From an uncultured Candidatus Saccharibacteria bacterium (GTDB lineage: Bacteria; Patescibacteriota; UBA1384; XYA2-FULL-43-10; 1-14-0-10-43-13), in assembly GCA_964543385.1 (NCBI GenBank), contig CAZIYE010000001.1:127143-191142 (forward strand): a DNA stretch of 64,000 nucleotides. The letters run 5' to 3'. Each line of letters opens with the position of its first letter. The first letter of the stretch is position 1. Below, in pieces: positions 3,047 through 51,051 of this stretch. The position numbers and the translations under genes were made by a program. Under the pieces are notes generated by a model. That model was given only the letters and a program-made list of their open reading frames with translations. It ran no database searches and was not told the DNA's origin.

Positions 3047-3520
3047 ATGCGCACCCCGGATTATCGGCAGTTCAGAGTAGCCAGCCGCCTCGAAGGCACG
3101 GCAAGAGAGCAAAAGATAAGAGACATTGCTCTCGCTCTTGTTAACACGGGTAATCTTAACGGCTTCTACGCCGCTTGGGATTCCGGCAACCCTGAGCTAT
3201 GCAGTATTGCATCAGCCGCGATTTGCCTGAACATCCCCGAGATGGTTACCCTCCTCTACGATGAGGAATTCGCCTGTGAAATCGCTTGCATCCTTGCAAA
3301 GCAGGGTCTCACATCATCCGACCCTGCCATCAGAGGTGAGGCGATCCCCGCATTACAATGGATAGCACTTTGTGGTGGCATAAGTTCCATCGCTAAACCG
3401 CTATCCAATCTCGTTGGCCAGTTCAACTCCGATGACTTTGTGCCTGAAGAATTCGAGCAGATACTCGATCTTCATGCAGATATTGCACAAGCCTATGGAC
3501 CATTTGACCAGGCCGCATGA
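3047..3520 (+). CDS. hypothetical protein on a GC-elevated patch
   Basis: 157-aa ORF with an RBS (aaggagg) upstream. Local GC is clearly above the genome background, and the ORF is followed by a perfect 17-bp inverted repeat. Confidence 0.4.
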   Translation: MRTPDYRQFRVASRLEGTAREQKIRDIALALVNTGNLNGFYAAWDSGNPELCSIASAAICLNIPEMVTLLYDEEFACEIACILAKQGLTSSDPAIRGEAIPALQWIALCGGISSIAKPLSNLVGQFNSDDFVPEEFEQILDLHADIAQAYGPFDQAA

Positions 3521-3530
3521 GACCGTTTCC

Positions 3531-3568
3531 GTTGGCGTGGGATCGCAGATTTGCGATCCCACGCCAAC
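3531..3568 (+). repeat. perfect 17-bp inverted repeat (GTTGGCGTGGGATCGCA / TGCGATCCCACGCCAAC) forming a stable hairpin
   Basis: Read directly from the sequence. It lies directly 3' of the GC-rich ORF and has no downstream U-tract, so it is not a canonical intrinsic terminator. Confidence 0.5.
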
Positions 3569-3598
3569 CATACAAATTCATTTATAATTTACACGAAA

Positions 3599-4201
3599 AT
3601 GATTATGACAAAGATAATTTTAGCTTCCGGCTCACAAGCCAGAAAAAATATAATCTCATCACTTAATTTTCCATATATCACGATACCTGCCGATATCGAC
3701 GAAAAAAGTATTCAAGATAGTGATCCTGCCAAAAGAGCAGAGATGATCGCTATTGCTAAAGCGGAAAAGATCTCCAAAGAAGAAAAGGCAATAGTTATTG
3801 CCGCTGATACCTTCTGTGTTCATGAAAGTGGCAAAGTGCTTGAAAAACCAGAGTCATTAAATGAAGCAAAAGAAATGCTTAAACTACAGTCTGATTCAGT
3901 TGATTTTATTTATAGCGGCTTTTGTTACATCGATAGCATCAATAACTTTAGATTCTCAGGAGCTGCTGTCACAAAAGTTTATTTTAGAAAATTTTCCGAA
4001 GAAGAAATTAATAATTGCATAGAAAATATGCCTGTGCTGACTTGGTCTGGTGCATTTTACCCTGGTATTCCTTATGGAGCATCGTTAATCAAAAAAGTTG
4101 AAGGCTCGCTTTCTTCTTTTCTATACGGCTTGCCTACAGAATTGCTTATCCCCCAATTAGAAAAGTCTGGAATTAAATTTTCACCAAAACAAGGATTTTA
4201 A
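3599..4201 (+). CDS. maf: Maf-like nucleoside triphosphate pyrophosphatase
   Basis: N-terminal IILASGSQAR matches the Maf signature (LASxSPRR). The start was moved to the internal ATG at 3599 because the upstream part of the ORF overlaps the hairpin. Confidence 0.65.
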   Translation: MIMTKIILASGSQARKNIISSLNFPYITIPADIDEKSIQDSDPAKRAEMIAIAKAEKISKEEKAIVIAADTFCVHESGKVLEKPESLNEAKEMLKLQSDSVDFIYSGFCYIDSINNFRFSGAAVTKVYFRKFSEEEINNCIENMPVLTWSGAFYPGIPYGASLIKKVEGSLSSFLYGLPTELLIPQLEKSGIKFSPKQGF

Positions 4202-4795
4202 ATGAAATTGATTATTGTAAGACACGGTGAGACAGAGGATAACGCAAAGAAAATAATTCAGGGTCAAAATCCCGGAAAACTATCAGCACTAGGCAAAGAA
4301 CAGGCTAAGAAAGTAGCTAGCAGATTAAAAAACGAAAAGATTGATTTTATTTATTGCAGCGATCTTGGAAGAGCAAAAGAAACGCTTGTTCCCATAGTAG
4401 AAAGCCACCAGAACATACCCACAATATATGAACCCATGCTAAGAGAGCGTAAGTTTGGCGTTTTTGATGGCAAAACAATGAAGGATTACAAACAGGCAAA
4501 AGACGCCGCAAATGATAGGAAATGGCGACCAGAAAATGGCGAGAACTTTTATGATGTTAAAAGAAGGATCAGGAAATTTCTAAAACATTTATTAAAAAAT
4601 CATAGCGGAAATGATACTATATTGATAATTACTCATGGTGGCTGGAAGGGGACATTTTTCAGTCAAATCATGCAAATACCAAGAGAGAAAGCCTTCTTTC
4701 TTCAGTTCGATAATACCTCCGTCTCTAAAATAGAATTACGAGGAGATGGTAAGCACAAATTCGGAGTGATCAATTGTACTAAACACCTAGACTGA
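4202..4795 (+). CDS. histidine phosphatase (phosphoglycerate mutase family)
   Basis: The RHGET catalytic motif is present at the N-terminus (IIVRHGETEDN). The gene abuts the stop codon of maf. Confidence 0.65.
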   Translation: MKLIIVRHGETEDNAKKIIQGQNPGKLSALGKEQAKKVASRLKNEKIDFIYCSDLGRAKETLVPIVESHQNIPTIYEPMLRERKFGVFDGKTMKDYKQAKDAANDRKWRPENGENFYDVKRRIRKFLKHLLKNHSGNDTILIITHGGWKGTFFSQIMQIPREKAFFLQFDNTSVSKIELRGDGKHKFGVINCTKHLD

Positions 4796-4873
4796 GATTT
4801 GCTATTTTGTTCTTTTTTGTTATATTGAGCTCATCTCCAAAAGAGATAAATCCACTCTGCATGAGGTGATGTT

Positions 4874-5683
4874 ATGAAGCCCTGGATTGAAGCTTTGCGG
4901 TTACCCGCTGGCTTGTTCACAGCATTTACTGTATTTGCCAGCTTCAATCTTGCTGGCCTGGACTACAAGCTGGCCATCATGCCAGCAATCGTGACTATTA
5001 CTATATTCTCTGCCACTGTAGCATTGAATGATTGGCACGACCGTCATCGGGATAGTCTGGCAGGAAAAACCTTTGCTTCCGACAAGGGCGAGACGTACGA
5101 ATCGTTCTGTTCTGCCCTCTGTCTACTGGCCGTAGGATCAGTCGCACTAATCCGGGAAATAAACGGTATGCTCTTGAGCATACTTATGATCTTCTTCGGT
5201 TTCACTTACCACAAAACCGAAAAGGTCACTGGATTATCGATGGTAATTGTGGCGATCACCACCGCCATTCCAGCGCTGTTTCCACTAACAGTAGTATTTA
5301 GTCTTGCTTCGATACTAGTTGCAGTATTTATTGTTGTTATTATGAATGTGCGTGAGATCTTCAAGGATTTCAAAGACGTCCCTGTCGACTCTCATCCGAC
5401 ACTAGGGAAAGCAACACTGCCAGTAAAGATTGGTACTGAGAAGTCTATCGTCGTAATAAGGATCGGACTAATAATAGCCTCTGGGCTGCTAAGTGCCCTG
5501 ATCTCATGCGATAGTAATCCACTTACTCATGGATTGCTGACATTCTCAATGATTCTGATGATCGCTATTGTCCTGATGATATATAACGATCAGAAGAACA
5601 TCGAAACAATGCACCTACTCCTCGATATCGCCCTCGGGATCGCCGCCATAGCTACTGGCATCCTTTGGCCGATATTCCACTGA
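4874..5683 (+). CDS. UbiA-family membrane prenyltransferase-like protein
   Basis: Polytopic membrane protein carrying the NDxxDxxxD motif (LNDWHDRHRD). GC is elevated relative to flanking DNA. Confidence 0.5.
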   Translation: MKPWIEALRLPAGLFTAFTVFASFNLAGLDYKLAIMPAIVTITIFSATVALNDWHDRHRDSLAGKTFASDKGETYESFCSALCLLAVGSVALIREINGMLLSILMIFFGFTYHKTEKVTGLSMVIVAITTAIPALFPLTVVFSLASILVAVFIVVIMNVREIFKDFKDVPVDSHPTLGKATLPVKIGTEKSIVVIRIGLIIASGLLSALISCDSNPLTHGLLTFSMILMIAIVLMIYNDQKNIETMHLLLDIALGIAAIATGILWPIFH

Positions 5684-7289: not shown

Positions 7290-7385
7290 ATCAAGGTTGT
7301 CTAACAAGAGTTCTCTTGTTTGACGCAATAAAAAAGCGCCATGTACTTTTGGCGTTTCATATATCCTACCCAGAGGAGGCATTCA

Positions 7386-7787
7386 ATGCCAACAACAGTC
7401 CCAACACGCACTCCTGTGGTGCCGGCACCAAAGTTAACAACCGAATTTCGGCGGTTAACACGCTGGGAGAGATACTATCGTATGGTATATCTCATCAATC
7501 TCGGCGAATCTATACTTGCTGAGATTAGGAATCCAGTGACCCTAGATCCCGGTGATGACGCCTCGATACTAGCGCTCAGCCTGGAGCATGCAGAAGCAGA
7601 CTACCTAACCGCACTTGCACACAAGCGCATTCTCGTAGCAAAACGACTGCAATGTTTCTTGCATGACCCGCTACCTTCGCACCGAAGAAAGGCCCACTTG
7701 GCCTTACGCACTATCATGTGCATGGACATCCTGCCGTTCGCCATCACTTGGCGCACAGCAATCGCACATGCGAAATGTGCCTCATAA
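7386..7787 (+). CDS. hypothetical protein (GC-rich orphan)
   Basis: ATG at 7386 is preceded by GAGGAGG. GC is about 50%, against about 35% for the background. Confidence 0.35.
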   Translation: MPTTVPTRTPVVPAPKLTTEFRRLTRWERYYRMVYLINLGESILAEIRNPVTLDPGDDASILALSLEHAEADYLTALAHKRILVAKRLQCFLHDPLPSHRRKAHLALRTIMCMDILPFAITWRTAIAHAKCAS

Positions 7788-7846
7788 CCATTTCGCAAGA
7801 TCAGAATTCGACCCACACCAGGGTCGTTTTCTATATATAGAACATT

Positions 7847-9079
7847 TTATTTTGCAGCATTATTTCCGGCCACATAGCCACTAGACCAAGCCCATTGCAG
7901 GTTGAAACCACCAGAATCACCATCGACGTCCAAGACTTCGCCAGCAAAATATAAATTGGACACGATTTTAGATTCAAGAGTCTTGGAATTTATTTCTTTT
8001 AAGCTCACACCACCGGAAGTGACCTGAGCCTCTTTAAGAGGTCTTAATTCCTTTACTGTTAGGGTCATTTCTTTCATATTATCAACAATTTTCGTTCGCT
8101 CTGTTTTGGAGATCTCAGCAGCCTTTTTAGAAGCATCCACTCCGGCATTTCTCAGAATTATCGGTAAGATATTAATAGGAGCAACTCCAATCAAAGAATT
8201 TTTAACCGTTTTGGCCCCACTATTAGAAAATATCATCGCTAATTTTTTATCAAGATCCTCAGCACTCAATTCAGTGAATATATCAATTTTTAATTTTACA
8301 ATCCCATCTTCAAGAAGAGGAGCAATCTTACTTGACTGAGCCATAACTGCAGGACCGGATAATCCAAAATGAGTGAATAAAAGGTCACCAGATTTTTGTG
8401 AAATGATTTTACCACCAACCTCAACCCCAACGTTTGCTTCTAGTTTGATACCAGAAACTTCTTTTGGCCAAGATTCTGTAGTTTCAATAGGGACAAGGGC
8501 AGCATAAATAGGTGATACAATATGACCAAATTTTTTAGCCCAAAAGAAGCCATCGCCAGAAGATCCAAGTTGATATGCCGCACGCCCGCCAGTTGATATT
8601 ATTAGCTTCGAACTCTCAACCATTTGACCATTAGCATCGGTAATTTTCCAAAACCCATCTTTTATAATATTTTTGACTTCAAAACTGGTCAATACAGTAA
8701 TGTTATTATGTCTAATCTCTAAACCGAGTATGTCGACAACACTTGAAGCCTGGTTTGTTCGTGGAAACATCCTTCCATTATTTTCCTCTTTCAAAATAAG
8801 CCCCATGGACTCAAAAAAATCTATTGTAGTATCTTGATCAAATTGTCTCAATACATCAGCAATAAAATATTTGTCAGAACCGCGATAATCGGATTCTGCA
8901 ATATTCCTATTTGTAATATTGCATCTGCCATTACCAGTTGCTAATATTTTCCGGCCAATCTTTTCATTTTTTTCTAAAAGTACAACTTTTTTACCATTTT
9001 TAGCCGCAAAAATAGCCGCCATTATCCCAGCCGGTCCAGCACCAATTATTGCAATGTCAAAATTTTTATTCATATTCAT
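7847..9079 (-). CDS. HI0933-family FAD/NAD(P)-binding flavoprotein (BaiN/aminoacetone oxidase family)
   Basis: N-terminal dinucleotide-binding motif IAIIGAGPAGIMAA ... ATGNGRCNITN. Confidence 0.7.
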   Translation of the reverse strand: MNMNKNFDIAIIGAGPAGIMAAIFAAKNGKKVVLLEKNEKIGRKILATGNGRCNITNRNIAESDYRGSDKYFIADVLRQFDQDTTIDFFESMGLILKEENNGRMFPRTNQASSVVDILGLEIRHNNITVLTSFEVKNIIKDGFWKITDANGQMVESSKLIISTGGRAAYQLGSSGDGFFWAKKFGHIVSPIYAALVPIETTESWPKEVSGIKLEANVGVEVGGKIISQKSGDLLFTHFGLSGPAVMAQSSKIAPLLEDGIVKLKIDIFTELSAEDLDKKLAMIFSNSGAKTVKNSLIGVAPINILPIILRNAGVDASKKAAEISKTERTKIVDNMKEMTLTVKELRPLKEAQVTSGGVSLKEINSKTLESKIVSNLYFAGEVLDVDGDSGGFNLQWAWSSGYVAGNNAAK

Positions 9080-17290: not shown

Positions 17291-20200
17291 CTACTCGGAT
17301 AAGTTAACTGGCTTACCTTCCTCAAGATGTTTATGATCGGCAATATTATGAGTATTATTAACAATTAAGTCCTTATCCTGCTGTGCGGATACTTCCCTGC
17401 TCTCTTTCACTGCAGGCACAGATATAAAAACATTTTCCTCTGCTGAAATAATAGATGTCTGTTGCGTCGATAATGCTCTCGACTCCGGTATTATCGGCAA
17501 GTTCTGACTATTATCAGGCTTCTGATTATCAGCAACTAGATCAGGCTCAGTCTTACTTTCGGTATCAGGTGATTGCTTTATATCTTTATTTAAATGACTG
17601 GAATCATTCTTTTTTTCAGCATTTTGATCATTGGAGTGATGTTTATCATTCGCTAACGACCCATTCTTATTTTTCTGGTCATGATGCATACTTTTTGGAT
17701 TCTTCTCGGTCTTTTGATCGGCAACTTTTCGAGATAGATCAATAATCTTTTGGCCGTTATCATCTATAATTGTACCTGACTTTTCTATTTTTTCTTTATC
17801 AATTTCTTCGCCCAAATACCACTTCACTCCCCCTCTAGCAGTGCGTTCCTTATAAATTTTACCATGCAAGATATTATCGTACCTAATAACACGAGGCTCC
17901 TTTTTTTTCTCGATCTCCCCCACCTCGCTATCTGCAGTAGTAACATCAGCATTGGATTGATTAGAGCCAGAAGCTACTTCAGGCTCGGCAGCAGCTAAAT
18001 TAACTACAGTTTTCGACTCTATTTGCTGAGATAAAGGAGCAGCCGCTGATATACTAGTGTTAGCAGTGTTTGTAGCAGCATGAGTAGTAATAGGAGTAAC
18101 TACGGGGGCAGAAACAGGAGTATGTGTAGTAGGAGCTGGTCGGTCGTGCTTTTTCAAAAGAATTGCCTCCAGACCACCCTTTTTAAAAGCCTCTGCTTCA
18201 GCTTTCAATTCATGTTCTTCCTGGGTACTTCGACCGCTTATCATCTCCTCGACATCAACACGTCGAGTAGAATAAGTAGCGTGAGAATGCTCAATAACCT
18301 TTTGAATATTGCCTGTTAATCTCTGTACTGGTGGTAATGTTTTGGCAGAAAATGCGGGAGCAGCAACACCATCAACTAACAATTTGATATAGATATTAAA
18401 TTTCTCAAGATTCAAAAGATCATTGGTTGTGAAAACTGGCTCAAACTCTTTTACCAAGACATCTGCATCAGCTCCACCTACCCTAAATGAAATAAGCGTA
18501 CCAGCGTTACCAAAGATCGCATCTCTAAGCTCTTCCGGAAGCTGTGTTATGTACTGGTGAGCCATCGTTAGACCGAGACCGTATTTTCTGGCTTCTGACA
18601 ATATCACTGCAAAAGCTTCTGTTGCAAAGTTCTGAAACTCGTCCACATATAAGAAGCAATCGGGGCGTTTATCCACAGTTACATTTGCCCGACTCATAGC
18701 TGCGAGCTGAATTTTAGTAATCATCATAGCACCAAGCAGTGCAGAGTTATCTTCACCAATTTTCCCCCGAGATAGATTTACAATCAATATCTTTTCCTGA
18801 TCCATTATCTCTCGGATGTTTATCCGTGATTTTGGTTGACCAACTATATTTCTAATTGTTGAAGAAGAAAGAAATTGACCGACTTTGTTTAGAATTGGTG
18901 AAACGGCTTCCGTTCTAAATTTATTATCAAATGAAGCAAACTCATTCATCCAGAACTCTTTAATAATAGGATCTTTGACATTTAATAAAACATTGTCCCT
19001 AAAGCGATTATTTGTTAACATTCGCGGAATATCAAGCATGGTAGCCCCCGGATGATCAAGAAGAGCCAAAACCGTGTTTCTAAGAATATGTTCCAGTCTT
19101 GGACCCCATGATTTATCGAAAAGTTTTTTAATAATACCAATAAAACCAGAGGCGACTAATCCCTTGAAATCATCGTCAACAGTTTCTAGAAGATTAAAGG
19201 CAATTGGAAAATCGCGATCCGAAGGATCAAATACTATTACATCATTTACTCTCTCATCTGGTATACAAGATAAAACTTTTTCAGCAAGTTCTCCATGAGG
19301 ATCAACAACAATAACACCAGATCCCTTGCATACATCGTTTATCGCCATATTCTCAATCAAAACAGATTTACCTACACCAGATTTACCTACAAGATAAATA
19401 TGTCTTCTTCTATCGTCTCTCTTAATACCAAATTCAGTGAAAACATTGCGAAAATTAGTCATGCCAATAACCGTAAAATCCTCTGGCGGAATATTTGACC
19501 TAATTGGTAAATTTGCTGGCGGTTCACCCTTTTTCGAACCAGACCACACAATATTAGGTGTTGACACGGTGCTAGATGGAAAATGGAATAAAGATGCAAG
19601 CTCGGCGATATTAAATATATTGCCATCATCCTCGAAAGAACGACCGACATAATCTTGCCAAAGAGTATGGTCATTCGACTTTATCTCCCCTACTCTAAAA
19701 CCATTTAGATTTGTTGTATTAAACTGTTTAAAAGCAGCGCAAACATTTCGACACTTTAATTTGGCCGAGGTTGGATCTGTGCCCAATGCAACTATTCTTA
19801 TCTTTGTCTCAAAACCTAATTTTGTAATTTTTTGCTCAATTCCCTTCAAAGCTTCCTCGACAGAAGCCTGTAGTTTGATATCTTTCTTATCATCTTTTTC
19901 GGAATAACCAGGATTAACAGCCTGAGACAAAAGACCCTTACCAACATTAGTAAATTCCTTTAGGAGAAGATTTGCAAAACCAAGTTTGGCTGTCGGCTTG
20001 CCACCAGATCGGACTGAATTTACCCTCGTATGCCCCTTTTCCTGCCAACGGTCACCCTTTGGTCTAATTATCATCTGAAACCAAATTTCTTCTCCTGCGC
20101 TCAATTGTGACATTACAGAAGTAATCGCTGAGATTGGGTCAACTTCGAAGTCTGTAAATTGCTTGATAGGATATACATCGGGCTTTGTAAGCGCTAATTC

Positions 20201-20614
20201 AGTAATTGCAAAATTCTTTGATTCAACATCTGGCCGAACTGTATAATCCTCAACTTCATGAATTTCAACATTCGGATATTGAGCGTAGACCTGCCCTTCA
20301 ACAAAATCCTTCAAGTGAACTGGCAAATAGACGAAAAACTGTATGAATTTTTCCTTGGAAATAATCTCAAAACTTAAATGATATTGAAATTTAGCACTCT
20401 CTGAATAGATACCATGAATTGTAGCGAACATCTGTTCGGCAGCCATCGGTGATTTCTCATTCATCCTAGGCACATCTATGCGAATAACGGTGTATTCCTG
20501 TGATGTCATCCACTGTATCTTCTTCATTCTATGATTAATACGAAAAATCGCCCATATCAAATAGATTGGACCAAAAATTAGAATAATATATAAAAGGTAT
20601 AGGATAAAAGACAT
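17291..20614 (-). CDS. membrane-anchored VirB4/VirD4-superfamily (HerA/FtsK-fold, DUF87/TraG-D_C-like) ATPase with a roughly 350-aa low-complexity C-terminal tail
   Basis: N-terminal TM helix. Walker A is GKSGVGKS, followed by a VVDPHGELAE motif. Walker B is FLYVDEFQNF, and the ARKYGLGLTMAHQY motif resembles TrwB/VirD4/VirB4 motifs. The C-terminal third is K/D/N/S-rich and predicted disordered. Confidence 0.6.
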   Translation of the reverse strand: MSFILYLLYIILIFGPIYLIWAIFRINHRMKKIQWMTSQEYTVIRIDVPRMNEKSPMAAEQMFATIHGIYSESAKFQYHLSFEIISKEKFIQFFVYLPVHLKDFVEGQVYAQYPNVEIHEVEDYTVRPDVESKNFAITELALTKPDVYPIKQFTDFEVDPISAITSVMSQLSAGEEIWFQMIIRPKGDRWQEKGHTRVNSVRSGGKPTAKLGFANLLLKEFTNVGKGLLSQAVNPGYSEKDDKKDIKLQASVEEALKGIEQKITKLGFETKIRIVALGTDPTSAKLKCRNVCAAFKQFNTTNLNGFRVGEIKSNDHTLWQDYVGRSFEDDGNIFNIAELASLFHFPSSTVSTPNIVWSGSKKGEPPANLPIRSNIPPEDFTVIGMTNFRNVFTEFGIKRDDRRRHIYLVGKSGVGKSVLIENMAINDVCKGSGVIVVDPHGELAEKVLSCIPDERVNDVIVFDPSDRDFPIAFNLLETVDDDFKGLVASGFIGIIKKLFDKSWGPRLEHILRNTVLALLDHPGATMLDIPRMLTNNRFRDNVLLNVKDPIIKEFWMNEFASFDNKFRTEAVSPILNKVGQFLSSSTIRNIVGQPKSRINIREIMDQEKILIVNLSRGKIGEDNSALLGAMMITKIQLAAMSRANVTVDKRPDCFLYVDEFQNFATEAFAVILSEARKYGLGLTMAHQYITQLPEELRDAIFGNAGTLISFRVGGADADVLVKEFEPVFTTNDLLNLEKFNIYIKLLVDGVAAPAFSAKTLPPVQRLTGNIQKVIEHSHATYSTRRVDVEEMISGRSTQEEHELKAEAEAFKKGGLEAILLKKHDRPAPTTHTPVSAPVVTPITTHAATNTANTSISAAAPLSQQIESKTVVNLAAAEPEVASGSNQSNADVTTADSEVGEIEKKKEPRVIRYDNILHGKIYKERTARGGVKWYLGEEIDKEKIEKSGTIIDDNGQKIIDLSRKVADQKTEKNPKSMHHDQKNKNGSLANDKHHSNDQNAEKKNDSSHLNKDIKQSPDTESKTEPDLVADNQKPDNSQNLPIIPESRALSTQQTSIISAEENVFISVPAVKESREVSAQQDKDLIVNNTHNIADHKHLEEGKPVNLSE

Positions 20615-20743
20615 TTAAACCTTCAATAAATCTGGGAAGGATAATATTCCTTCTAACAATATTATATAAGAGATTAGATTTTTTTGCAAAGAGATCGAAG
20701 ATAAAAATGACCTTTTGCGGCCGTAAAGCGCCATGGCAAAGGA

Positions 20744-30221: not shown

Positions 30222-30912
30222 GGTGTTCTCCCGCTGTATGGTGGCGACCCGCTCGATTGTGAATTTTTTTATTACCGAGCAAACAAGATAGAAAAGTGTA
30301 AATTCAGGCGCTCAAAAGCGCCGTTTAAGCGTAATTTCTACTCTCTTTGCTCAGTAATACTATTTAATTGTTAAGGTACTTTGTGCTCATATTCACCCTT
30401 TTAGGGTAAACAAAAGGCGACACTGTTCTGCATAACTCGATAGGCGGAGGGGGAACCTATTTCCCTGATAAATCAGGGAAGTTGAGCTATGCAGGACGCT
30501 GCCGCCTGCATATTGACCACTTATATTAGATACTGACTCTGTTTCCTCCATCGTGCAGTTGTCTATTATTAGTTGTCTTTGGGATTGTTTTGATACTTGC
30601 TCGGCCACTTTCCTAACCGTGCATATTTATATTATACAATATTTATTTTAATTTGTCAATAGATATTGATACTTTCTGTGACAATATGCTGGCAATCCAT
30701 ACGGCCGGAGGGGGGGGCCGTATCTACAATTAAATGCTAGGATTACCAACATGCTGGCACAGACTTAATACAAATCAGACTCATAATTTGTTACTATTTA
30801 TTCCTCCTGAGAATTCCACCTCGCCTACCCTCAGAACATCGCATTGTAACATAACAAAAATACTTTGTCAAGACGAATCCCAACAAAGTATTTATATCAG
30901 ATTAAAACAGCA

Positions 30913-39610: not shown

Positions 39611-41152
39611 TTATTTTTTCAAGAGTGAAAGCATCTTTCTCGACTTAACATAGTAAATCGATAACATACCTGTCAGAGTGAAAAGTAAGCTTAATAGCGG
39701 TGTACTTGGTCCAGTCATTGGCAAAGCTGGAGTGACTGCTATAGGAGTTACAACAATTTTTGTTTTAGCGATATCATTTAAAGTCTGATTATCAAACCGA
39801 AGAGTTGCAGTGTTCACTAGTATTTCTCCAGTTGCGATTCCAGATGATATTTTAACTTTAAATTTGATAATGCCGTCTTCATTTTTGCCCAAAGAACCAA
39901 TTTTGATTCCATCAAAGATAGCCTTGTTACCTAAAGCGGTGCTAACACCATTTCTGATAAGAGAAGCACTGCCATTTACAAATGAAACATTTGCAGGTAA
40001 AACATCGCTTATTGTAATGTTATCAGCTTTTTCACCAGAGTTTGCAAAGAATATCTGATATTCCAGAACATCTCCGGGTTTAGCTTGATTTTCTTTCGAA
40101 AAGCCAGCCTCGTTTATAGTAACGTTTCGAACTGATTTCTCAATTCGCAGCGTTGGTTGACCAGGAATTATCTTGCCGATATTTACAAAAACTAAGTTTC
40201 CATAAATATTTTCCATAATACCATCGAAATGTTTTCCGTCTTGGGTATTTGTAGGCTGAGGATTCTTAACTATTACCTTAAAGGTCCTTACGTTTGTCTC
40301 TCCTGCAACAATTCTAACTGCAGGGTAGCTGATTACACCGTTTGACAAAGTACCACCGATTGAGGCGCTAGTAAAATCTGCCAGCTCTAAGATATCGCTT
40401 ATGTCATCAGTGACAGTGAAGTCAGTTGCTGCATTTCCTGTGTTCTTTGTCGTTAGAGTGTAAAGAACCTCATCACCCGGATTTGCTGAAATATTTACGC
40501 CCTCGGCGCCAGATACTAAATTCTTAGCAATCTTACTCTTTACTATATTTGGTGTAGGCATTTTGATTGTCTTGAATTGAAACAAAACATATCCAATATG
40601 TTCCCAACAACCTCTTACATCACCTATTTTTAATCCACCAGTAGTGAGAAGTTCATCGCCATTCTGGCTAAATAAAAGGTCAGACGGAGGAGTACCAAAA
40701 CTTTTAAAATCTGGAAACCATTGTACTGATCCAGGAATCATAACTACATTTGCATCTGTATCTAGATTGACAGTTAAACTGTCAAAAACAGTAGAGGCGT
40801 TATCTGCGGAAATTGCAGTATTGATAACTATCTTTTTGTTACTTGACACTGAAGGCAAGCTAACTTTGACTCGAGTATCACGAGCTGTGGTATCTACTAC
40901 GCCATTGTGGTAGTAAATAATTGCTGCAAAAGTATCGCCAGCAAGACCATCAACTGGTTTACGCCACGAAACTTCACCTGCAGACTTGTTTGCACCACGT
41001 ATTTGTTGAAGATCATCTTTCAAGTAATTGAACCTTGGACCAGATGCATTTACAGACAAAGCCGGTGCGATTAATTGTGATAGCAATGCAGAAACAAGCG
41101 CTATTCCTAGCACTTTCTTCCACCCTCCAGTGATTTTTTGGATCAAATTCAT
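39611..41152 (-). CDS. LPXTG-anchored cell-surface protein with DUF11-type repeat domains
   Basis: Signal peptide; DUF11-like beta-repeat segments (NTGNAATDFTVTDDIS, ANSGEKADNITISDVLPANVSF); C-terminal LPMTG followed by a hydrophobic segment and a KSRK tail, which is a sortase sorting signal. Confidence 0.6.
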   Translation of the reverse strand: MNLIQKITGGWKKVLGIALVSALLSQLIAPALSVNASGPRFNYLKDDLQQIRGANKSAGEVSWRKPVDGLAGDTFAAIIYYHNGVVDTTARDTRVKVSLPSVSSNKKIVINTAISADNASTVFDSLTVNLDTDANVVMIPGSVQWFPDFKSFGTPPSDLLFSQNGDELLTTGGLKIGDVRGCWEHIGYVLFQFKTIKMPTPNIVKSKIAKNLVSGAEGVNISANPGDEVLYTLTTKNTGNAATDFTVTDDISDILELADFTSASIGGTLSNGVISYPAVRIVAGETNVRTFKVIVKNPQPTNTQDGKHFDGIMENIYGNLVFVNIGKIIPGQPTLRIEKSVRNVTINEAGFSKENQAKPGDVLEYQIFFANSGEKADNITISDVLPANVSFVNGSASLIRNGVSTALGNKAIFDGIKIGSLGKNEDGIIKFKVKISSGIATGEILVNTATLRFDNQTLNDIAKTKIVVTPIAVTPALPMTGPSTPLLSLLFTLTGMLSIYYVKSRKMLSLLKK

Positions 41153-41375
41153 TTTTTTCCTTAATCCTCTAGCTAAAAGCTATCGGCACTTTCATAATTG
41201 TTATTACTTTTTTAAATTTAACTCTCTATATATATTAATAGCCATTATGGTTAGCAATTGCAATGGACTCATCTCCGAAAGTATGAATAAATCATAACTT
41301 CGGGATGAGGGGGTGCGCGCCTTTCAACAGGCACCCCGCTCAAGTTAGTTGCCACCGGGTACGGTGGCGGGCGTC

Positions 41376-42140
41376 CTAATACGGGACGCCAGGTTCGGGA
41401 ATCGGCCCCGCACCAGGCCAATGCCCACAGCTCTGGCTCGTCCCCCCACAAAACGGGCAGCGGAATAGCCATAGCAGGCCAAGCCGCCACTCCATCACCG
41501 GCTCTTTCTGCCAGAATGGCATCCGGTCCGGGGTGAGTCCCGACTTGGCGAAGCAAAGCTTTGATATGATCACTGCTTGCTGTTCGCGGGTTGGGAGCGG
41601 CTTTTGTGCAGCCACCGTTGGCTTATCGAGACTGATCGCCTCGAGGCACCATTGGTCGACAGTGGCAGTTGCCATGACGCCGGTATACGGCAGCTTTTGA
41701 GGGCAAATAATCCGGACATACCAGTCAATACGTGTGAGTAACTGCGTAATGATCTGGTATGCCAGGTCGACTTCTTCAAACGTCCTGCAGAGGTAGATCG
41801 GGGTGTGGATGATGTCCAGTTGGAGCATCAGCACAAGCCCATTCTTCACTGAAGGAGTCATATGTCGACCCTTCTTTGCCCAATAGCAACGGTAACGCTC
41901 GATTTCGGCGTAGTCATACGCCGTTAACGTGCGCTTTTCTGCGACCCGCTGAACGGTAACCTTCACCCAATCGCATTGCTGCGAAGAATAGGTTTGTCCA
42001 TCCGAAGTCCAGGAAGGAACAGTCGGTGCCGGCGTGGTTGCCGACTGAGTGCTTGCTTGCGGCACTCCCGCGTTATTACCCATCTCGGCCATCACCGGCA
42101 AGCCGGCAAGGACGAGAATCAGGGCCATGATCATTTTCAT
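41376..42140 (-). CDS. secreted hypothetical protein on a high-GC island
   Basis: The start was moved to MKMIMALILVLAGLPVMA (a signal peptide) preceded by an AGGAGG RBS. GC is about 55-58%. Confidence 0.4.
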   Translation of the reverse strand: MKMIMALILVLAGLPVMAEMGNNAGVPQASTQSATTPAPTVPSWTSDGQTYSSQQCDWVKVTVQRVAEKRTLTAYDYAEIERYRCYWAKKGRHMTPSVKNGLVLMLQLDIIHTPIYLCRTFEEVDLAYQIITQLLTRIDWYVRIICPQKLPYTGVMATATVDQWCLEAISLDKPTVAAQKPLPTREQQAVIISKLCFAKSGLTPDRMPFWQKEPVMEWRLGLLWLFRCPFCGGTSQSCGHWPGAGPIPEPGVPY

Positions 42141-42151
42141 CTGCACACCTC

Positions 42152-43444
42152 CTAAAGCGGCAGGACGATGACGTTTGAAACGCCAGGGCGGTAAGTGATC
42201 ATCTCTGACCAATTCCGACCATCAGTTGAATATTTCAGATTATATTCATATGACACGAGGTTTCCATTCACACGCTCACCGATGGCAGCATTGTTTATAG
42301 GAATATCCCCAGGAGCATATGGACCGAAGACTCGCCCTTGCGGGTAAGCACGATCATACAATCTAATCCACACCTTCTTTGAAGTGCGGAAGCAGTAGTT
42401 TCCATGGACCACTTCTGTTTGTTTCTGAGTGGTAACGGAAGACGATATGCCGGGTGCCGGCGCTTTGAGATACTCGATGACTTGCACCAGGGTTAACTGG
42501 TGATTGGCAACGAGTTGCCTTAAACGCTGAATCTCGGCCTCGGTTTTACCCGAGTTCCGAGCGACGACTTGAATCGCCTCCCAAACCTTCAAGTCAAAAG
42601 CTTCACAAGCAGCCACACGGGCTTCAAGATTGGCAATTTGGACAAGAAGACTGGAATCATCGTAGGCAGGAACAGAAGTGATGCCTCCACCAGTCAGCCC
42701 AGTACCGGTACTACCCATCGCCTTGTCATTGGCAAGTAAGGTCTCGAAGACGAGCCCGTTACCACCATTGCCAGCGCGACGAAGCAGATCGGTCAAGTAC
42801 TGAACTGAAGGAGCGGAACAGTTGGCAGGCCAACACTCCGTTTTGAAGCGGAGAGTGTCGACCATTGCTGACAGGTTAGTTTTTCCTGCCCACTTGATCT
42901 TGAAGAGGATCAAGTTTATAGCTTTGTCGTTGCGTTTTCCATCCTGGACCAACGCATAGAAACGGAAGCAATGCAGATCAGCACCAACAGCTACCTCAAG
43001 AGGCATCTCTAGGTACCAGCGCCCGCCAGCGTCCCGTTTGAGAACCAGCACACCCGGAGTTGTAAACGACCAGGTATTGGTCCTGCGATCATAGCTATAC
43101 TCGAGCTTTTTCTCTAGCTCGCCTTGTGCAGCGACCATCGCCACCACCGGCATGTCAGCGAGGACGTTAGGGTATACCTTCATGGTTGCCCCAATCCCCA
43201 CAGGAAATGTGCCGAGGTACGAGGTCTCTGCCTCGTCCCATTGCCAGGTGACTGCTTGCGCATAAGTCACCTGCACCTGGACTTTTCCACTGGTAACCTG
43301 CTGCGATGCCTGTTCAGTATAGACCGGACCGTCTAGGACGGCACCAGTTGCACCGAATGGAGCAGCACTTGCTGGCGTGATTGCCAGCGCGCCAACCATT
43401 AAGGTCAGCAATACGAGGCCAATTACGGCCAGCGGGTTACGCAT
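42152..43444 (-). CDS. secreted hypothetical protein on a high-GC island
   Basis: The start was moved to MRNPLAVIGLVLLTLMVGALAITPASA (a signal peptide) with an AGAGGAGGA RBS. GC is about 55-58%. A strong hairpin sits in the 5' leader. Confidence 0.4.
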   Translation of the reverse strand: MRNPLAVIGLVLLTLMVGALAITPASAAPFGATGAVLDGPVYTEQASQQVTSGKVQVQVTYAQAVTWQWDEAETSYLGTFPVGIGATMKVYPNVLADMPVVAMVAAQGELEKKLEYSYDRRTNTWSFTTPGVLVLKRDAGGRWYLEMPLEVAVGADLHCFRFYALVQDGKRNDKAINLILFKIKWAGKTNLSAMVDTLRFKTECWPANCSAPSVQYLTDLLRRAGNGGNGLVFETLLANDKAMGSTGTGLTGGGITSVPAYDDSSLLVQIANLEARVAACEAFDLKVWEAIQVVARNSGKTEAEIQRLRQLVANHQLTLVQVIEYLKAPAPGISSSVTTQKQTEVVHGNYCFRTSKKVWIRLYDRAYPQGRVFGPYAPGDIPINNAAIGERVNGNLVSYEYNLKYSTDGRNWSEMITYRPGVSNVIVLPL

Positions 43445-44126
43445 CTGCGTTCCTCCTCTTTCATTTTTGGGGTACCTCTCGCCACCAGGCGAGGAGGTAC
43501 CTGATTGCAAGAAAATTGAGACGATTGGATTGCTCCGATTTCGTCTGCAAGGAAGTATTATTTATTCGAGATCAATTGATAGCTTTTATCTGCCTACTTC
43601 TAGCTATCACTCGAAGAATAAATTCTTCTATTGCAGCTGAAATTGCTTCTAAACATTTTCACTGATTTTTATTCTATTTGATTTTTAATTGCCATTTTTT
43701 AGCAATTCATAAATTATCTATAGTTGAAATAATTTATTTTTGTGAGATTTTATATATTTTACAATTTTTAAATATACTATTGTGACTTCAATCGCCTTTT
43801 GCTTTCTTAAATCCAACCAGGAAGAAGGCGAGAAGTGATAGAAGCTAACATGGCCAGGTCCACTTATTTTAAGGAACCTCTCTGCCGGTTAGCCGGAATG
43901 CCTATCACCCTAATACCCCTAAATCCCAGTCGGATTTAAGAAAACAAAAAAGGATCGTCAGCGATATATTTGGCACTTAAAGACCAATGATCGCCGCCCC
44001 ATCCTTTTGTCCACCGCACATAGTATTCCTAAGTGTGGTAGTAATTAACCCCTTGTTAGCTTAGCGCTAACTTAACTACTGACAAATTTTAGCACCTTTG
44101 CTTGACTTTGTCAATAGTTTATGGCC

Positions 44127-47626: not shown

Positions 47627-49786
47627 TTAGCTATTGTCTATTGTCTGTTCTGGCTTATCCCATGTCGCATAATCACACTCTGGATATCTGGAGCATCCCC
47701 AGAAAGATCTCCTTCTTTTTGTCTTTCTCTCTATCACTTCGCCTTTTTCACATTTCGGACACTTAATTCCAGTTTTACCAACGATAGCCTTTGTATTCTT
47801 GCATTTTGGATAATTCTCGCAAGCCAAAAATTTGCCAAATCTCCCCTCTTTAAGAACCATCTTGCCGCCACATTTTTCACATTTTTCCTTCTCAGCGTCG
47901 GGCAAGCTTTCTGTTTTGCCATCACCTTCTAGAACCTCTAAATTTTTGTCATCGGTTTTTGTTTCGATCGGTCTTGAATATTTGCAAGTCGGATATCCAG
48001 TACAAGCAATAAATTTACCAAATCTACCATGTTTAATTACCAATGGCTTGTCACATTCTGGACAAGATTCACCAGTTTCTTCAACAGGCATTACTTCATT
48101 TTTATTTATTTCTTTATCTTTTAAAGCTAGATTCTTAGCAAAGGGCTTGTAAAATTCATCAATAACGCCATGCCACTCTCTTTTTCCTTCGGCAATTTCA
48201 TCAAACTCATCTTCCATCTTTGCGGTAAACTGGTAATCGACTATCTCTTGAAAATGTTTTACAAGTAGATCGTTTACGATAGATCCTATTTCAGTTGGCT
48301 GAAATCTTTTTGTAATTAGCTCAACATAGCCACGTTTTTGTATTGTTTCAAGGGTTGGAGCATAGGTTGAAGGACGTCCGATACCCAAACTTTCGAGTTT
48401 CTTAACGAGAGTTGCTTCGGAATATCGTTTAGGCGGCTCGGTAAATTTCTGATCTTTGATCATTCTAATAAAATCAAGAATATCGCTTACTTCCATTTTT
48501 GGTATCTTGGTTGTTTCTTTCTCGGTATCATCATCGCTACTCTCCTGATAAACCTTCATAAAACCATCAAATTTAACCATCTCTCCCTTGGCTAGAAATA
48601 CATACTTCTTTGCGGTATCAGCAAGCACTTTTACCTTAACAACATCAATAATTGCATCTGCCATTTGAGTTGCAACAGTTCTTTTCCATATAAGATCGTA
48701 TAATTTTTGACCACGGCGGTCGTCTGTTACATTCAATTTCTCAAAATGAGTTGGTCTGATTGCCTCATGCGCTTCCTGTGCATGTTTTGTCTTTGTGGCA
48801 AAAGATCTTCCCTTGCCTGCTATATATTCTTCTCCAAATTGATTAGTTATTACTCCCTTTATCGCCAAGACAGCTTCAACAGACAAATTTATTGAGTCAG
48901 TACGCATATAGGTAATATGTCCAGCCTCATAAAGCTGCTGAGCTAAAACCATTGTTTGCTTAGGTGAATAGCCAAGTTTTCTCGAAGCCTCCATCTGCAA
49001 GGTCGATGTTGTAAATGGCGCCGATGGACGGCGGATTGAATCTTCATGTTTAATATCTAAAACCTGATAAGAAGCATTTTTTAGATTATTATAAATTTCT
49101 GTTGCTGCTTCCTCGGTCTTAATATCCATTTTTCCAACCGATTTACCATCTATTTCTGATAATAATGCAACAAATGATTCTTTGCTCTTTGTCGCAAGCT
49201 CTGCACCAATCAACCAATATTCCACTGGCTTGAAGTTCTCTATTTCTCTTTCTTTTTCCACTACCAAACGGACAGCAACAGACTGGACACGACCAGCCGA
49301 AAGTCCTTTTTTGACCTTTTTCCAAAGTAATGGAGACAGTTTATATCCAACAAGACGATCAAGAACTCTTCGCGCTTGCTGTGCATCAACTAAATTTATA
49401 TCAAGGTCTCTAGGATTCTTAACTGCATTTTCAATCGCATTTTTTGTTATTTCATGAAAAACAATCCTTTTTACTCTGGAATCTTTCTTCTTAAGCCCTA
49501 AAGCATGAGTCAAATGCCACGAGATTGCTTCTCCTTCACGATCCAAGTCAGTTGCTAAATAAACTATTTCTGCCTTCGATGAATATTCTTTGAGCGCTGA
49601 AATAGTTTTTTTTGCCTTTGGTAAAATTTGATACTGAGGATCATAATTTTTCTCAATATCGATCCCGATATTCTTCTCCAGCAAATCCCGAACATGACCA
49701 AAAGAAGCCAAGACCTTATAGTCACGACCAAGATATTTTTCTATTGTCTTTGCTTTCGCAGGAGACTCTACTATTACTAGATTCAT
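47627..49786 (-). CDS. topA: DNA topoisomerase I
   Basis: Toprim N-terminus (MNLVIVESPAKAKTI), active-site Tyr region (YMRTDS), and three C-terminal C4 zinc ribbons. Confidence 0.9.
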   Translation of the reverse strand: MNLVIVESPAKAKTIEKYLGRDYKVLASFGHVRDLLEKNIGIDIEKNYDPQYQILPKAKKTISALKEYSSKAEIVYLATDLDREGEAISWHLTHALGLKKKDSRVKRIVFHEITKNAIENAVKNPRDLDINLVDAQQARRVLDRLVGYKLSPLLWKKVKKGLSAGRVQSVAVRLVVEKEREIENFKPVEYWLIGAELATKSKESFVALLSEIDGKSVGKMDIKTEEAATEIYNNLKNASYQVLDIKHEDSIRRPSAPFTTSTLQMEASRKLGYSPKQTMVLAQQLYEAGHITYMRTDSINLSVEAVLAIKGVITNQFGEEYIAGKGRSFATKTKHAQEAHEAIRPTHFEKLNVTDDRRGQKLYDLIWKRTVATQMADAIIDVVKVKVLADTAKKYVFLAKGEMVKFDGFMKVYQESSDDDTEKETTKIPKMEVSDILDFIRMIKDQKFTEPPKRYSEATLVKKLESLGIGRPSTYAPTLETIQKRGYVELITKRFQPTEIGSIVNDLLVKHFQEIVDYQFTAKMEDEFDEIAEGKREWHGVIDEFYKPFAKNLALKDKEINKNEVMPVEETGESCPECDKPLVIKHGRFGKFIACTGYPTCKYSRPIETKTDDKNLEVLEGDGKTESLPDAEKEKCEKCGGKMVLKEGRFGKFLACENYPKCKNTKAIVGKTGIKCPKCEKGEVIERKTKRRRSFWGCSRYPECDYATWDKPEQTIDNS

Positions 49787-50978: not shown

Positions 50979-51051
50979 TTCCCTCCCTTAAACAATCTTA
51001 GCTATTTGAAAACTACTAATTTTACATTTGTTATATTATATAACTCTAATA

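Follow-up and report, generated by a model that had tools for sequence, protein, structure and literature searches.

Two paralogous DUF8128 ATPases with a VirB4-type N-terminal domain and T4CP-like motors in a chromosomal core locus of Patescibacteria

Introduction

Patescibacteria (CPR) form a substantial part of bacterial diversity and obtain their building blocks from host cells, and a type IV secretion system (T4SS) is essential in Southlakia, the one species of the group that is genetically tractable (PMC10633639 supplements). The closest described relatives of the ATPases reported here come from a survey of the phylum (Quinonero-Coronel et al. 2025, PMC12102498), in which T4CP homologues were found as 5,713 genes in 2,918 of 3,035 Patescibacteria genomes (96%), compared to VirB4 in 80%, and in which a possible exaptation of these VirD4-like proteins was already raised. 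Since the first share exceeds the second, some carriers may have no T4SS, and incompleteness of the MAGs could explain part of the difference. A subset of 148 of the 5,713 homologues lies near virB4, showing that linkage to a T4SS does occur. By Tn-seq of Southlakia, SEML1_0142 and the small gene upstream of it, SEML1_0141, are essential, as is the HTH gene SEML1_0294, with SEML1_0293 being non-essential; a separate and canonical FtsK (SEML1_0096) is also essential (PMC10633639 supplements).

The locus described here, in a 64-kb stretch of DNA from an uncultured Candidatus Saccharibacteria bacterium (the window), encodes two T4SS-related ATPases, the only such enzymes with a nearly universal distribution in Patescibacteria, earlier noted just as 'T4CP homologues, possibly exapted'. 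That these ATPases are T4CP homologues and that their N-terminal domain is Pfam DUF8128 (PF26449) is already known; DUF8128 itself is not mentioned in papers, as far as our literature search reached.

Results

Organization of the array

Seven co-directional minus-strand ORFs at 17291-29298 were confirmed by ORF calling, each in the place that an earlier note on this DNA had given, and their features are listed here together with those of the upstream boundary.

17291-20614, minus strand: ATPase paralog 1, 1107 aa (from BLASTP, Pfam and motif inspection)
20543-20611, minus strand: TM anchor of ATPase 1, residues 2-24
19421-20470, minus strand: DUF8128 / VirB4-NTD-like domain of ATPase 1, residues ~49-398
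18305-19420, minus strand: T4CP-like motor domain of ATPase 1, residues ~399-770
17294-18304, minus strand: long low-complexity C-terminal tail of ATPase 1, residues 771-1107
20744-21772, minus strand: 342-aa protein with Sigma70_r4 (Pfam, 44 bits) and HARE-HTH (41 bits)
21575-21739, minus strand: sigma-70 region 4 HTH of the 342-aa protein, residues 12-66
20936-21109, minus strand: HARE-HTH of the 342-aa protein, residues 222-279
21786-22298, minus strand: conserved 170-aa protein, beta-rich after an N-terminal helix
22412-24970, minus strand: ATPase paralog 2, 852 aa
24836-24904, minus strand: TM anchor of ATPase 2, residues 23-45
23756-24817, minus strand: DUF8128 / VirB4-NTD-like domain of ATPase 2, residues 52-405
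22571-23743, minus strand: T4CP-like motor of ATPase 2 with an inserted all-helical subdomain, residues ~410-800
24986-26041, minus strand: acidic low-complexity 351-aa protein, pI 4.7, directly upstream of ATPase 2 (15-nt gap)
26055-26402, minus strand: acidic DUF5663-like 115-aa protein, pI 4.8
26422-29298, minus strand: 958-aa Gly/Ala/Arg-rich protein, first gene of the array
29399-29469, minus strand: two terminator-like hairpins (12 and 8 bp stems, then T-runs) at the end of the upstream 236-aa gene

The intergenic gaps are 129, 13, 113, 15, 13 and 19 nt in ascending coordinate order, with promoter-like sites and one weak hairpin inside the 113-nt and 129-nt gaps, and the strong hairpins at 29399-29469 are the upstream boundary of the array. 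The GC content of the cluster is similar to that of the rest of the window, with the exception of the 958-aa gene. There are no tRNA genes or Rfam matches in the window, and its other large genes that were scanned are housekeeping genes. Neither a relaxase nor VirB4, VirB6, VirB8 or VirB11 is present among the window proteins scanned, and equivalents of VirB3, VirB6 and VirB8 are missing from cluster and window, in agreement with the earlier finding of no other T4SS part nearby.

The ATPase pair

The two ATPases share 36% identity over 833 columns (BLASTP, E=2e-170), as expected of the paralogs they were taken to be, and the similarity spans both the ATPase core and the ~400-aa N-terminal region. 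Every motif quoted earlier for the pair is present: Walker A (GKSGVGKS / GKTGVGKT in the two proteins), DPHGE / DPNGD, a Walker B (LYVDEFQNF) common to both, and ARKYGLGL..HQY / SRKYKLGL..NQY. Each also has the single N-terminal TM helix previously attributed to it, seen as a hydrophobic segment in the sequence and as helix 23-56 in an AF2 model, which places a helical insertion in the NBD at residues 512-627. A folded domain of ~350 aa (DUF8128) sits between the TM helix and the NBD; this VirB4-type N-terminal domain (NTD) had been overlooked in the earlier note. PF26449 is precomputed on the identical ATPase 1 gene in locus L001. The tail of ATPase 1 contains a single conserved mini-motif, near residues 905-960 in the tail consensus.

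Family placement

Each ATPase has the VirB4 two-domain architecture, a VirB4-type NTD fold followed by a RecA-like C-terminal motor of the VirB4/VirD4 type, and the signatures that Pfam profiles assign to the motor half are those of T4CPs. ATPase 1 matches TrwB_AAD_bind (PF10412) at 33.4 bits (GA 20.5) and TraG-D_C at 22.4 bits, with DUF87 at 22.6 bits being under its GA of 23.2, and ATPase 2 matches T4SS-DNA_transf (PF02534) at 27.5 bits (GA 20.1). Among 51 family members, TraG-D_C is matched at E<=0.01 by all 51, PF10412 by 39 and PF02534 by 36, and CagE_TrbE_VirB (PF03135) and AAA_10 (PF12846) by none; the FtsK_SpoIIIE Pfam family is likewise unmatched among the 51. These profiles, with T4CP families above their gathering thresholds, place both ATPases in the VirB4/VirD4 branch of the FtsK-HerA superfamily, where the earlier note had put them, and not in an unrelated family with no T4SS affinity. 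More specific comparisons give lower scores, with 15-55 bits against NCBIfam TraD/TraG equivalogs that have cut-offs of 366-686, and just Walker-A-level matches to DotL and TrwB in a sequence-only comparison with the PDB.

Several features of the neighbouring families are missing. The NBD does not follow straight after the membrane domain as in T4CPs, a large N-terminal cytoplasmic domain lying between them, and no linkage to a relaxase or T4SS channel is seen in the window or in syntenic loci. The motor profile, the alpha and gamma domains and the polytopic N-terminal domain of FtsK/SpoIIIE are lacking, as are the HerA central domain at threshold, the HAS barrel, and a nuclease or effector partner. 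Structural matches of the ATPase to DptH and HerA led us to consider a defence system; this was rejected, as PADLOC gave just partial mad8/HerA and MzaA sigma-r4 matches, without partner genes, and the context is universal and syntenic.

Plasmid and phage relatives

A DUF87 protein of a Bacillus subtilis plasmid aligns with the family over 685 columns and both domains (hhalign probability 99.9%, E=2.5e-35). Its gene immediately precedes a Replic_Relax gene, the operon also encoding TcpC, TcpE and an AAA_10 VirB4 (387 bits to AAA_10), and because a relative of the family coexists there with a true VirB4, the family is a paralogous lineage distinct from VirB4. Most of the other 344 plasmid records match in the motor half only and carry T4CP or TraM-recognition annotations. 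Among phage families, phrog_5156 is matched over its full length (E=1e-99 and 6e-91), and tblastn coverage of the plasmid and phage homologs is 66-92%. The Bacillus phage homologs occur without a complete T4SS, which suggests that a T4SS is not the only setting in which the family functions. The ancestor of the family was most likely an ATPase of the kind that lies, in at least one plasmid of Firmicutes, beside a relaxase-family gene and next to a separate true VirB4.

Partner genes

The 342-aa protein is basic (pI 9.4), and the two Pfam scores listed above uphold its identification as a sigma70-r4/HARE-HTH protein; its PDB sequence matches are limited to sigma region 4. In Berkelbacteria- and Doudnabacteria-like lineages the 170-aa gene accompanies ATPase 2, following the ATPase-2-type gene in loci L002-L010, L014-L022, L089-L092 and L096, and its product has 48-57% identity in syntenic loci, with 7,958 of 8,000 scored candidates passing E<=0.001. 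It has no Pfam or PDB sequence match, with sub-threshold hints to small beta-barrels only. One JGI name describes it as an AbrB/MazE-like antitoxin, which is unsupported by a PDB-sequence profile search and a Pfam scan of 40 members.

The two proteins upstream of ATPase 2 are acidic, as had been observed before. The position of the 351-aa protein is conserved but its sequence is not, and there is no BLAST counterpart; the slot is filled by a gene of 161-531 aa in L002, L004 and L005, and a small gene at position -1 before the ATPase-2-type gene is also present in 22 Microgenomatia loci. The 115-aa protein scores 23.1 bits against Pfam DUF5663, slightly below the GA of 23.7; PF18908 is precomputed on this gene in L001, L002 and L005, and identity is 38-48% in L002 and L005. 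Homology of DUF5663 to the small Microgenomatia gene was rejected (hhalign probability 0.2%).

For the 958-aa ORF the more probable start codon is the ATG at 29265, for a product of 947 aa, which is the start that gene callers assign on other contigs. It contains 3-4 glycine-zipper TM-like segments (residues ~110-150, 282-305, 495-515), and these Gly/Ala-zipper segments are conserved in position among homologs, which sustains the glycine-zipper character claimed for it. The protein is otherwise fast-evolving, with a poorly conserved C-terminal third, 28-33% identity to its positional counterparts, and 6 homologs only among 5.8 billion proteins; it has no Pfam, NCBIfam, PADLOC, PHROG or PDB sequence match.

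Synteny and distribution

The cluster and its Tgt / SecDF / DUF1290 / RluA flanks recur in L002 (on a 971-kb contig), L004, L005 and L006, with the ATPases being 54-73% identical across syntenic loci (54-62% for ATPase 1 in L002, L004 and L005). No relaxase, integrase, replication or mating-pair-formation genes and no variable context, as expected of an ICE or plasmid T4SS, were encountered. The cluster is thus a chromosomal core locus that is vertically inherited and not a mobile element: the earlier note was right to call it atypical for a conjugative T4SS, and the standard ICE or plasmid T4SS that it had allowed for is not what the syntenic housekeeping flanks indicate.

Matches extend well beyond these loci, over 590 stretches being matched among the species genomes of GTDB (Berkel-, Doudna-, Gracili-, Peri- and Paceibacteria, and Microgenomatia). 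The two ATPases are two old orthogroups with different conserved partners: type 1 goes with an HTH gene, and type 2 with both a small -1 gene and the 170-aa gene. Phylum-wide, 42 of the 62 evaluable ATPase-1-type loci have the Sigma70_r4/HARE-HTH gene as the next gene upstream, in the same orientation, and in Microgenomatia loci the ATPase-2-type gene has XerD-like and FtsB-like neighbours. The operon-like unit of the earlier note thus holds across CPR genomes in its sub-modules, which are widely conserved, but not as a whole, the full seven-gene array being confined to a Berkelbacteria-like lineage. Nor is the duplication of the motor unusual, as had been thought, because about two copies per genome are the rule in the phylum (PMC12102498), in two old orthogroups. 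Genetic code 25 was considered as the cause of 'split' ATPase-1 ORFs; it fits four loci and fails in ten others.

Counterparts in Southlakia were assigned by domain coordinates, annotation and synteny. By these measures SEML1_0142 (essential) would be ATPase-2-like and SEML1_0293 (dispensable) ATPase-1-like, SEML1_0294/0293 would be the local version of the HTH-ATPase 1 pair, and SEML1_0141 would be the -1 small gene of the ATPase-2-type locus.

Discussion

We favour, with a probability of about 0.5, the interpretation that the two ATPases are conjugation-derived membrane motors that feed a T4SS encoded elsewhere. They would assemble into ATP-driven rings on the cytoplasmic side of the membrane, selecting nucleic acid and/or protein and pushing it into the VirB4-based T4SS that most Patescibacteria have at another chromosomal site. 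ATPase 2, with its variable acidic upstream protein and the downstream 170-aa protein, would form the core module, and ATPase 1, with its long disordered tail and the sigma-region-4/HARE-HTH DNA-binding protein, would form an accessory and possibly DNA-linked module; the inferred Southlakia counterparts are essential for the former and dispensable for the latter. The glycine-zipper membrane protein of 958 aa and DUF5663 would have been added in particular lineages. Counting against T4SS coupling are the lack of any T4SS structural gene in the 64-kb window, the small proportion of T4CP-like genes near virB4 (148 of 5,713), an architecture (one TM helix and a ~350-aa NTD) unlike that of characterised T4CPs, the Bacillus phage homologs that occur without a complete T4SS, and conjugative TraD/TraG matches in NCBIfam that are far under the cut-offs.

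Alternatively, the ATPases, the glycine-zipper protein and the small acidic proteins could constitute a minimal translocon of their own, a T4SS-independent machine for export or import that might take up host nucleic acid or deliver DNA or protein. We regard this as doubtful. It would account for T4CP-like genes being commoner than VirB4 (96% versus 80% of genomes) and almost never adjacent to it, for the conserved partners that the ATPases have of their own (the HTH gene, the 170-aa gene and the -1 small gene), and for a membrane protein with conserved glycine-zipper segments heading the array; phage homologs, too, function without a full T4SS. However, the glycine-zipper protein and DUF5663 are fast-evolving and confined to Berkelbacteria-like lineages, and therefore not a universal channel for a phylum-wide ATPase, and across the phylum the ATPases have no linked polytopic channel protein that is conserved. 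Moreover, a relative of the family lies alongside a VirB4 machine in the one conjugation operon inspected, and 148 T4CP-like genes do adjoin virB4.

A bolder proposal, which we consider unlikely, is that the DUF8128 ATPases are inner-membrane motors that import host RNA and/or DNA, through the T4SS pilus or channel or through partners of their own, and so act as coupling ATPases 'in reverse'. The ATPase-2 module would then be the feeding motor and the HTH-linked ATPase-1 module a DNA-specific accessory, the whole representing a third VirB4/VirD4 lineage with VirB4 architecture and T4CP signatures.

Somewhat more unlikely again is HerA-/DptH-like processing of nucleic acid on the cytoplasmic side of the membrane, with the sigma-r4/HARE-HTH protein as partner and no transport involved; repair, surveillance of a restriction-like kind and remodelling coupled to transcription are examples. 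A PADLOC mad8 match of 53 bits with partial HerA matches, the sub-threshold DUF87 matches, and the close association, throughout the phylum, of ATPase 1 with a DNA-binding HTH protein would fit such a role, but nuclease partners such as NurA, Sir2 or DptF/G are absent from the cluster, the locus differs from defence islands in being universal, syntenic and flanked by housekeeping genes, the N-terminal membrane anchor and VirB4-type NTD indicate a membrane machine, and sequence profiles favour T4CP families over HerA. A mobile conjugative element (an ICE or plasmid remnant) or an FtsK-type chromosome-segregation translocase is very improbable and largely refuted by the synteny and family tests, as the conjugation-related family with relatives on plasmids and phages, and the XerD-like and FtsB-like neighbours in Microgenomatia, are set against the lack of relaxase, integrase or repeats, housekeeping flanks that recur in several genomes, a GC content that departs from the window's only in the 958-aa gene, and the separate essential FtsK of Southlakia.

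The VirB4-type NTD, the two ancient orthogroups with their different conserved partners and the apparent essentiality of one of them in Southlakia make these ATPases targets for depletion, interaction and nucleic-acid-transport experiments. Pfam DUF8128 gains a fold assignment (VirB4-NTD), and the family is now connected with ATPases in the coupling slot of Firmicutes plasmids, as well as with Bacillus phage genes that had lacked an explanation, SPO1 gp27.4 among them.

Comparison with known systems

Relative to VirB4 (TrwK of R388; T. pseudethanolicus VirB4), whose sequence profiles are unmatched by the 51 members, the ATPases here have a TM helix of their own at the N-terminus and are not linked to VirB3, VirB6 or VirB8. 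With the T4CPs (TrwB, VirD4, TraD, DotL, Cag-beta) they share TrwB_AAD_bind, T4SS-DNA_transf and TraG-D_C matches, membrane anchoring, and an NBD helical insertion at the position of the all-alpha domain, and the Bacillus plasmid homolog adjoins a relaxase-family gene; they differ in having one TM helix where classical T4CPs have two, in a ~350-aa VirB4-like NTD absent from classical T4CPs, in scoring an order of magnitude below the cut-offs of the specific NCBIfam TraD/TraG equivalogs, and in having no relaxase or T4SS nearby. In contrast to HerA and DptH (DndH), the NTD is VirB4-like and not a HAS barrel, and nuclease partners are absent from the surroundings. Homology to the Bacillus/Clostridium plasmid 'DUF87 domain-containing protein', Bacillus phage SPO1 gp27.4 and phage G gp156 extends over NTD and motor, although at 21-28% identity only; the plasmid homolog lacks the N-terminal TM helix (the alignment begins at query residue 62), and these homologs lie on mobile elements (a conjugation operon, a phage module), whereas the ATPases here occupy a conserved chromosomal core locus.

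The closest correspondence is to the 'T4CP homologues to VirD4' of PMC12102498, which are the same proteins: about two per genome, chromosomal, rarely near virB4 and with no relaxase. That survey mentions only a non-essential t4cp, whereas SEML1_0142, the second Southlakia paralog, is scored essential, and as far as our literature search shows, this essentiality, the VirB4-NTD fold, and the two orthogroups with their partners are absent from the survey.

Organization of the array

The seven co-directional open reading frames lie on the minus strand exactly where the earlier note placed them, and are separated by intergenic gaps of 13–129 nt. Conservation drops across the array, as seen from the identities of the encoded proteins to their positional counterparts in three compared loci.

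Genes of the array in transcription order (all minus strand), with percent identity to the counterparts in L002, L005 and L004
26422-29298, 958-aa protein: 28, 33, none
26055-26402, 115-aa DUF5663 protein: 48, 38, none
24986-26041, 351-aa acidic protein: none in any
22412-24970, ATPase 2, 852 aa: 73, 69, 60
21786-22298, 170-aa protein: 57, 54, 48
20744-21772, 342-aa HTH protein (Sigma70_r4 and HARE-HTH): 73, 53, 32
17291-20614, ATPase 1, 1107 aa: 58, 62, 54

Just six homologs of the 958-aa protein are detectable among 5.8 billion sequences, with TM-like Gly/Ala-zipper segments that keep their positions; on other contigs its reading frame is 947 aa (ATG at 29265). Because promoter-like matches lie inside the 113-nt and 129-nt gaps, transcription of the array as one operon is only possible. 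Two strong terminator hairpins (29399-29469) set it apart from the upstream 236-aa gene (29511-30221), whose product combines a signal-peptide-like N-terminus with a coiled coil, a Pro/Thr-rich linker and hydrophobic segments at the C-terminus. This gene and a 71-aa ORF follow a 12/12 sigma-70 consensus promoter (TTGACA-17-TATAAT, 30631-30659, minus strand) and form a unit whose termination precedes the start of the array.

Going by the names of homologs, the window belongs to a Berkelbacteria-like member of the Patescibacteria (CPR). Housekeeping functions account for the remaining large window genes that were scanned (IleRS, TopA, DprA, Mfd-like, CysRS, Dus, FtsW, RF, Tgt and SecDF), there are no tRNA or Rfam matches in the window, and VirB4, VirB6, VirB8 and relaxase were not found among the window proteins scanned, in agreement with the earlier note. 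The TopA, DprA and Mfd-like helicase genes lie together (47627-52893), about 20 kb from the array; DprA is DNA-processing protein A, a competence and recombination mediator. GC content peaks at 0.44–0.48 at 28001-30000 and 40001-44000 (about 0.36–0.40 elsewhere), overlapping the fast-evolving Gly/Ala/Arg-rich 958-aa gene and a DUF11/DUF7927 surface-protein region (39611-41152, 42152-43510). The array and its flanks, Tgt upstream and DUF1290, SecF, SecD and a pseudouridine synthase downstream, recur in other genomes, including on contigs of 971 kb and 396 kb; because the same flanks enclose the same cluster, the array is a stable chromosomal core locus, and neither an ICE nor a plasmid.

Domain structure of the ATPases

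The two ATPases are paralogous (36% identity over 833 columns, E=2e-170), with both the N-terminal ~400 residues and the ATPase core covered. The earlier description from the sequence holds for the Walker A, DP[HN]G[ED], YVDEFQNF and [AS]RKY.LGL motifs, for the lone N-terminal hydrophobic helix of each ATPase, and for the acidic pI of both small proteins. The proposed resemblance to coupling proteins is borne out by profile searches, in which both exceed the Pfam gathering thresholds of coupling-protein families (TrwB_AAD_bind, 33.4 bits; T4SS-DNA_transf, 27.5 bits). All 51 family members match TraG-D_C, 39 match TrwB_AAD_bind and 36 match T4SS-DNA_transf, and none of the 51 matches FtsK_SpoIIIE or the VirB4 families CagE_TrbE_VirB and AAA_10. 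Direct sequence comparison with PDB chains gives DotL and TrwB, at the Walker-A level only.

Structure comparison (figures without a column label) gives 29.4 for the VirB4 C-terminal domain, 28.0 for DptH, 26.3 for TrwB, 23.9 for both DotL and HerA, and 15.0 for FtsK. The top Foldseek matches are full-length VirB4 (TrwK), aligned end to end, and therefore the N-terminal region might be VirB4-like too. Precomputed annotations assign this region to Pfam DUF8128, a name mentioned by no paper in the literature searched; it comprises about 1,580 clusters at 50% identity and, among the top 150, is always N-terminal, in full-length proteins of about 700–1,100 aa. The ATPases are composed of a membrane anchor, a VirB4-type N-terminal domain and a VirB4/VirD4-type motor with coupling-protein-like sequence signatures. 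The VirB4-type fold of DUF8128 appears to be new, and points to a distinct lineage combining VirB4 architecture with coupling-protein signatures.

The C-terminal tail of ATPase 1 (residues 771-1107; 17294-18304) is a low-complexity, probably disordered stretch of ~330 residues, and its orthologs range from 937 to 1172 aa in total length. It contains a single conserved island (consensus ...QNIIGDKIYKEQTARGGVKWY.G..ID..., residues ~905-960 of the window protein) that matches no family.

Distribution and gene partners

Scanning GTDB species genomes yielded >590 matching stretches, in Berkel-, Doudna-, Curtiss-, Woese-, Gottesman-, Davies-, Roizman-, Levy-, Gracili-, Peri- and Staskawiczbacteria. 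The complete seven-gene array is confined to Berkelbacteria-like genomes; outside these, the ATPase-2-type gene is mostly alone amid housekeeping genes, with the 170-aa gene downstream of it in Doudnabacteria-like loci. Directly upstream of it (position -1) in 22 Microgenomatia loci (including L027, L029, L032, L035, L041, L042, L044 and L045) is a small gene, whose product is variable and of low complexity at its N-terminus and carries a conserved motif at its C-terminus, LPLTxxQIxxGL...WRWLAEWCxRxLK, forming an amphipathic basic helix. Homology of this protein to DUF5663 is ruled out (hhalign probability 0.2%). The same -1 position is occupied by the 351-aa acidic protein gene in the window and by the essential SEML1_0141 in Southlakia.

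ATPase-1-type loci were gathered from metagenomes, and the two types are cleanly set apart by profile score (e.g. 880 vs 530 bits); the duplication is therefore ancient. Of the 62 ATPase-1-type loci that could be evaluated, 42 have a sigma-region-4/HARE-HTH gene directly upstream and on the same strand. Since region 4 is the only match of its product to sigma factors, this product is, judging from sequence, probably not a complete sigma factor. The recognition of two ATPase orthogroups with distinct conserved partners appears to be new.

At ten metagenome loci (L127, L143, L144, L149, L150, L151, L153, L154, L155 and L157) the ATPase-1-type frame is broken at the boundary of the N- and C-terminal domains by 1–3 in-frame stops, and continues in the same frame (e.g. 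L155:5959-7341 and 7345-8916). All three stop codons (TAA, TAG and TGA) are represented, four of the loci having just one TAA or TAG, and the interruptions reflect either a real split, into a membrane-anchored VirB4-NTD-like protein and a soluble ATPase, or stop-codon readthrough. Genetic code 25 does not account for them; it does account for multiple in-frame TGAs in four other loci (L156, L159, L160 and L168).

Relatives on phages and plasmids

The phage family phrog_5156 covers ATPases 1 and 2 at full length (E=1e-99 and 6e-91), and by tblastn relatives of full length appear in Bacillus phages and on Bacillus, Clostridium and Priestia plasmids. The phage homologs of the DUF8128 ATPases (phrog_5156) are SPO1 gp27.4 (L088, 4572-7292) and phage G gp156 (L170, 5013-7490). 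In phage G a 'VirB-like' gene (gp155, 3348-4997) precedes the ATPase gene, and SPO1 gp27.3, the neighbour of gp27.4, has a homolog in the same phage G genome, suggesting that large Bacillus phages carry a small conserved module around this ATPase. Hundreds of motor-domain-only relatives, annotated as coupling or TraM-recognition proteins, occur on Firmicutes, actinomycete and archaeal plasmids.

Role of the ATPases

The most economical reading is that the locus holds the phylum's two conjugation-derived coupling-type ATPases, kept as core genes; they would be motors or receptors, anchored in the membrane and powered by NTP, that feed a type IV secretion system (T4SS) encoded elsewhere. The coupling-protein signatures favor this, as do the coupling slot occupied by a plasmid homolog, the linkage to virB4 seen now and then, and the situation in Southlakia, where both the T4SS and one paralog are essential. 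A survey of 3,035 genomes found 5,713 VirD4-type coupling-protein homologues in 2,918 of them and VirB4 in 2,417, with only 148 coupling-protein genes near virB4 (Quinonero-Coronel et al. 2025, PMC12102498). The ATPases are more widespread than VirB4, and their genes are hardly ever linked to virB4; these points, together with the atypical architecture and the phage homologs, count against feeding of a T4SS. The same features, with the wide spread, keep alive the stand-alone translocon proposed in the earlier note, which we regard as unlikely, at perhaps one chance in four. That note's observation of the paired ATPases stands and its interpretation holds in part, but its view of motor duplication as unusual is wrong for this phylum. 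A purely cytoplasmic role of the HerA/DptH kind, both being among the structural matches, is less likely for these membrane-anchored proteins, and mobile element, defence system and FtsK-like readings are essentially excluded.

In Southlakia, Tn-seq tables (Wang et al. 2023, PMC10633639) give SEML1_0293 as non-essential and the preceding SEML1_0294 (Sigma70_r4 and HARE-HTH) as essential. All three calls score another paralog, SEML1_0142 (P-loop domain 381-800, 'TraM recognition domain'), as essential; the small upstream gene SEML1_0141 is essential too, and so, separately, is the canonical FtsK, SEML1_0096 (PMC10633639). SEML1_0293 and ATPase 1 have the same Pfam coordinates, and from architecture and synteny we infer that SEML1_0293 is of type 1 and SEML1_0142 of type 2. 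The survey called the Southlakia t4cp non-essential and kept exaptation as a possibility (PMC12102498); it mentions one such gene where the Tn-seq table has two, and seems to have overlooked SEML1_0142, whose recognition as an essential paralog appears to be new. Reviews propose nutrient or nucleic-acid uptake for the patescibacterial T4SS and state that its actual role is unknown, and according to a 2026 preprint host RNA is taken up, by a route not yet resolved.

The existence of orphan coupling-protein-like genes in Patescibacteria is already published; what appears to be new is their connection with coupling-slot ATPases of plasmids and with genes of Bacillus phages. A B. subtilis plasmid of 27.5 kb carries a homolog (hhalign probability 99.9%, E=2.5e-35, 685 columns, both domains) with a Replic_Relax gene of the relaxase family directly after it, and then TcpC, TcpE and an AAA_10 VirB4, a true VirB4 at 387 bits. 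This homolog fills the slot that belongs to the coupling protein in a Gram-positive conjugation module, beside a separate VirB4, which fits the published derivation of the patescibacterial T4SS from monoderm conjugation machinery (PMC12102498).
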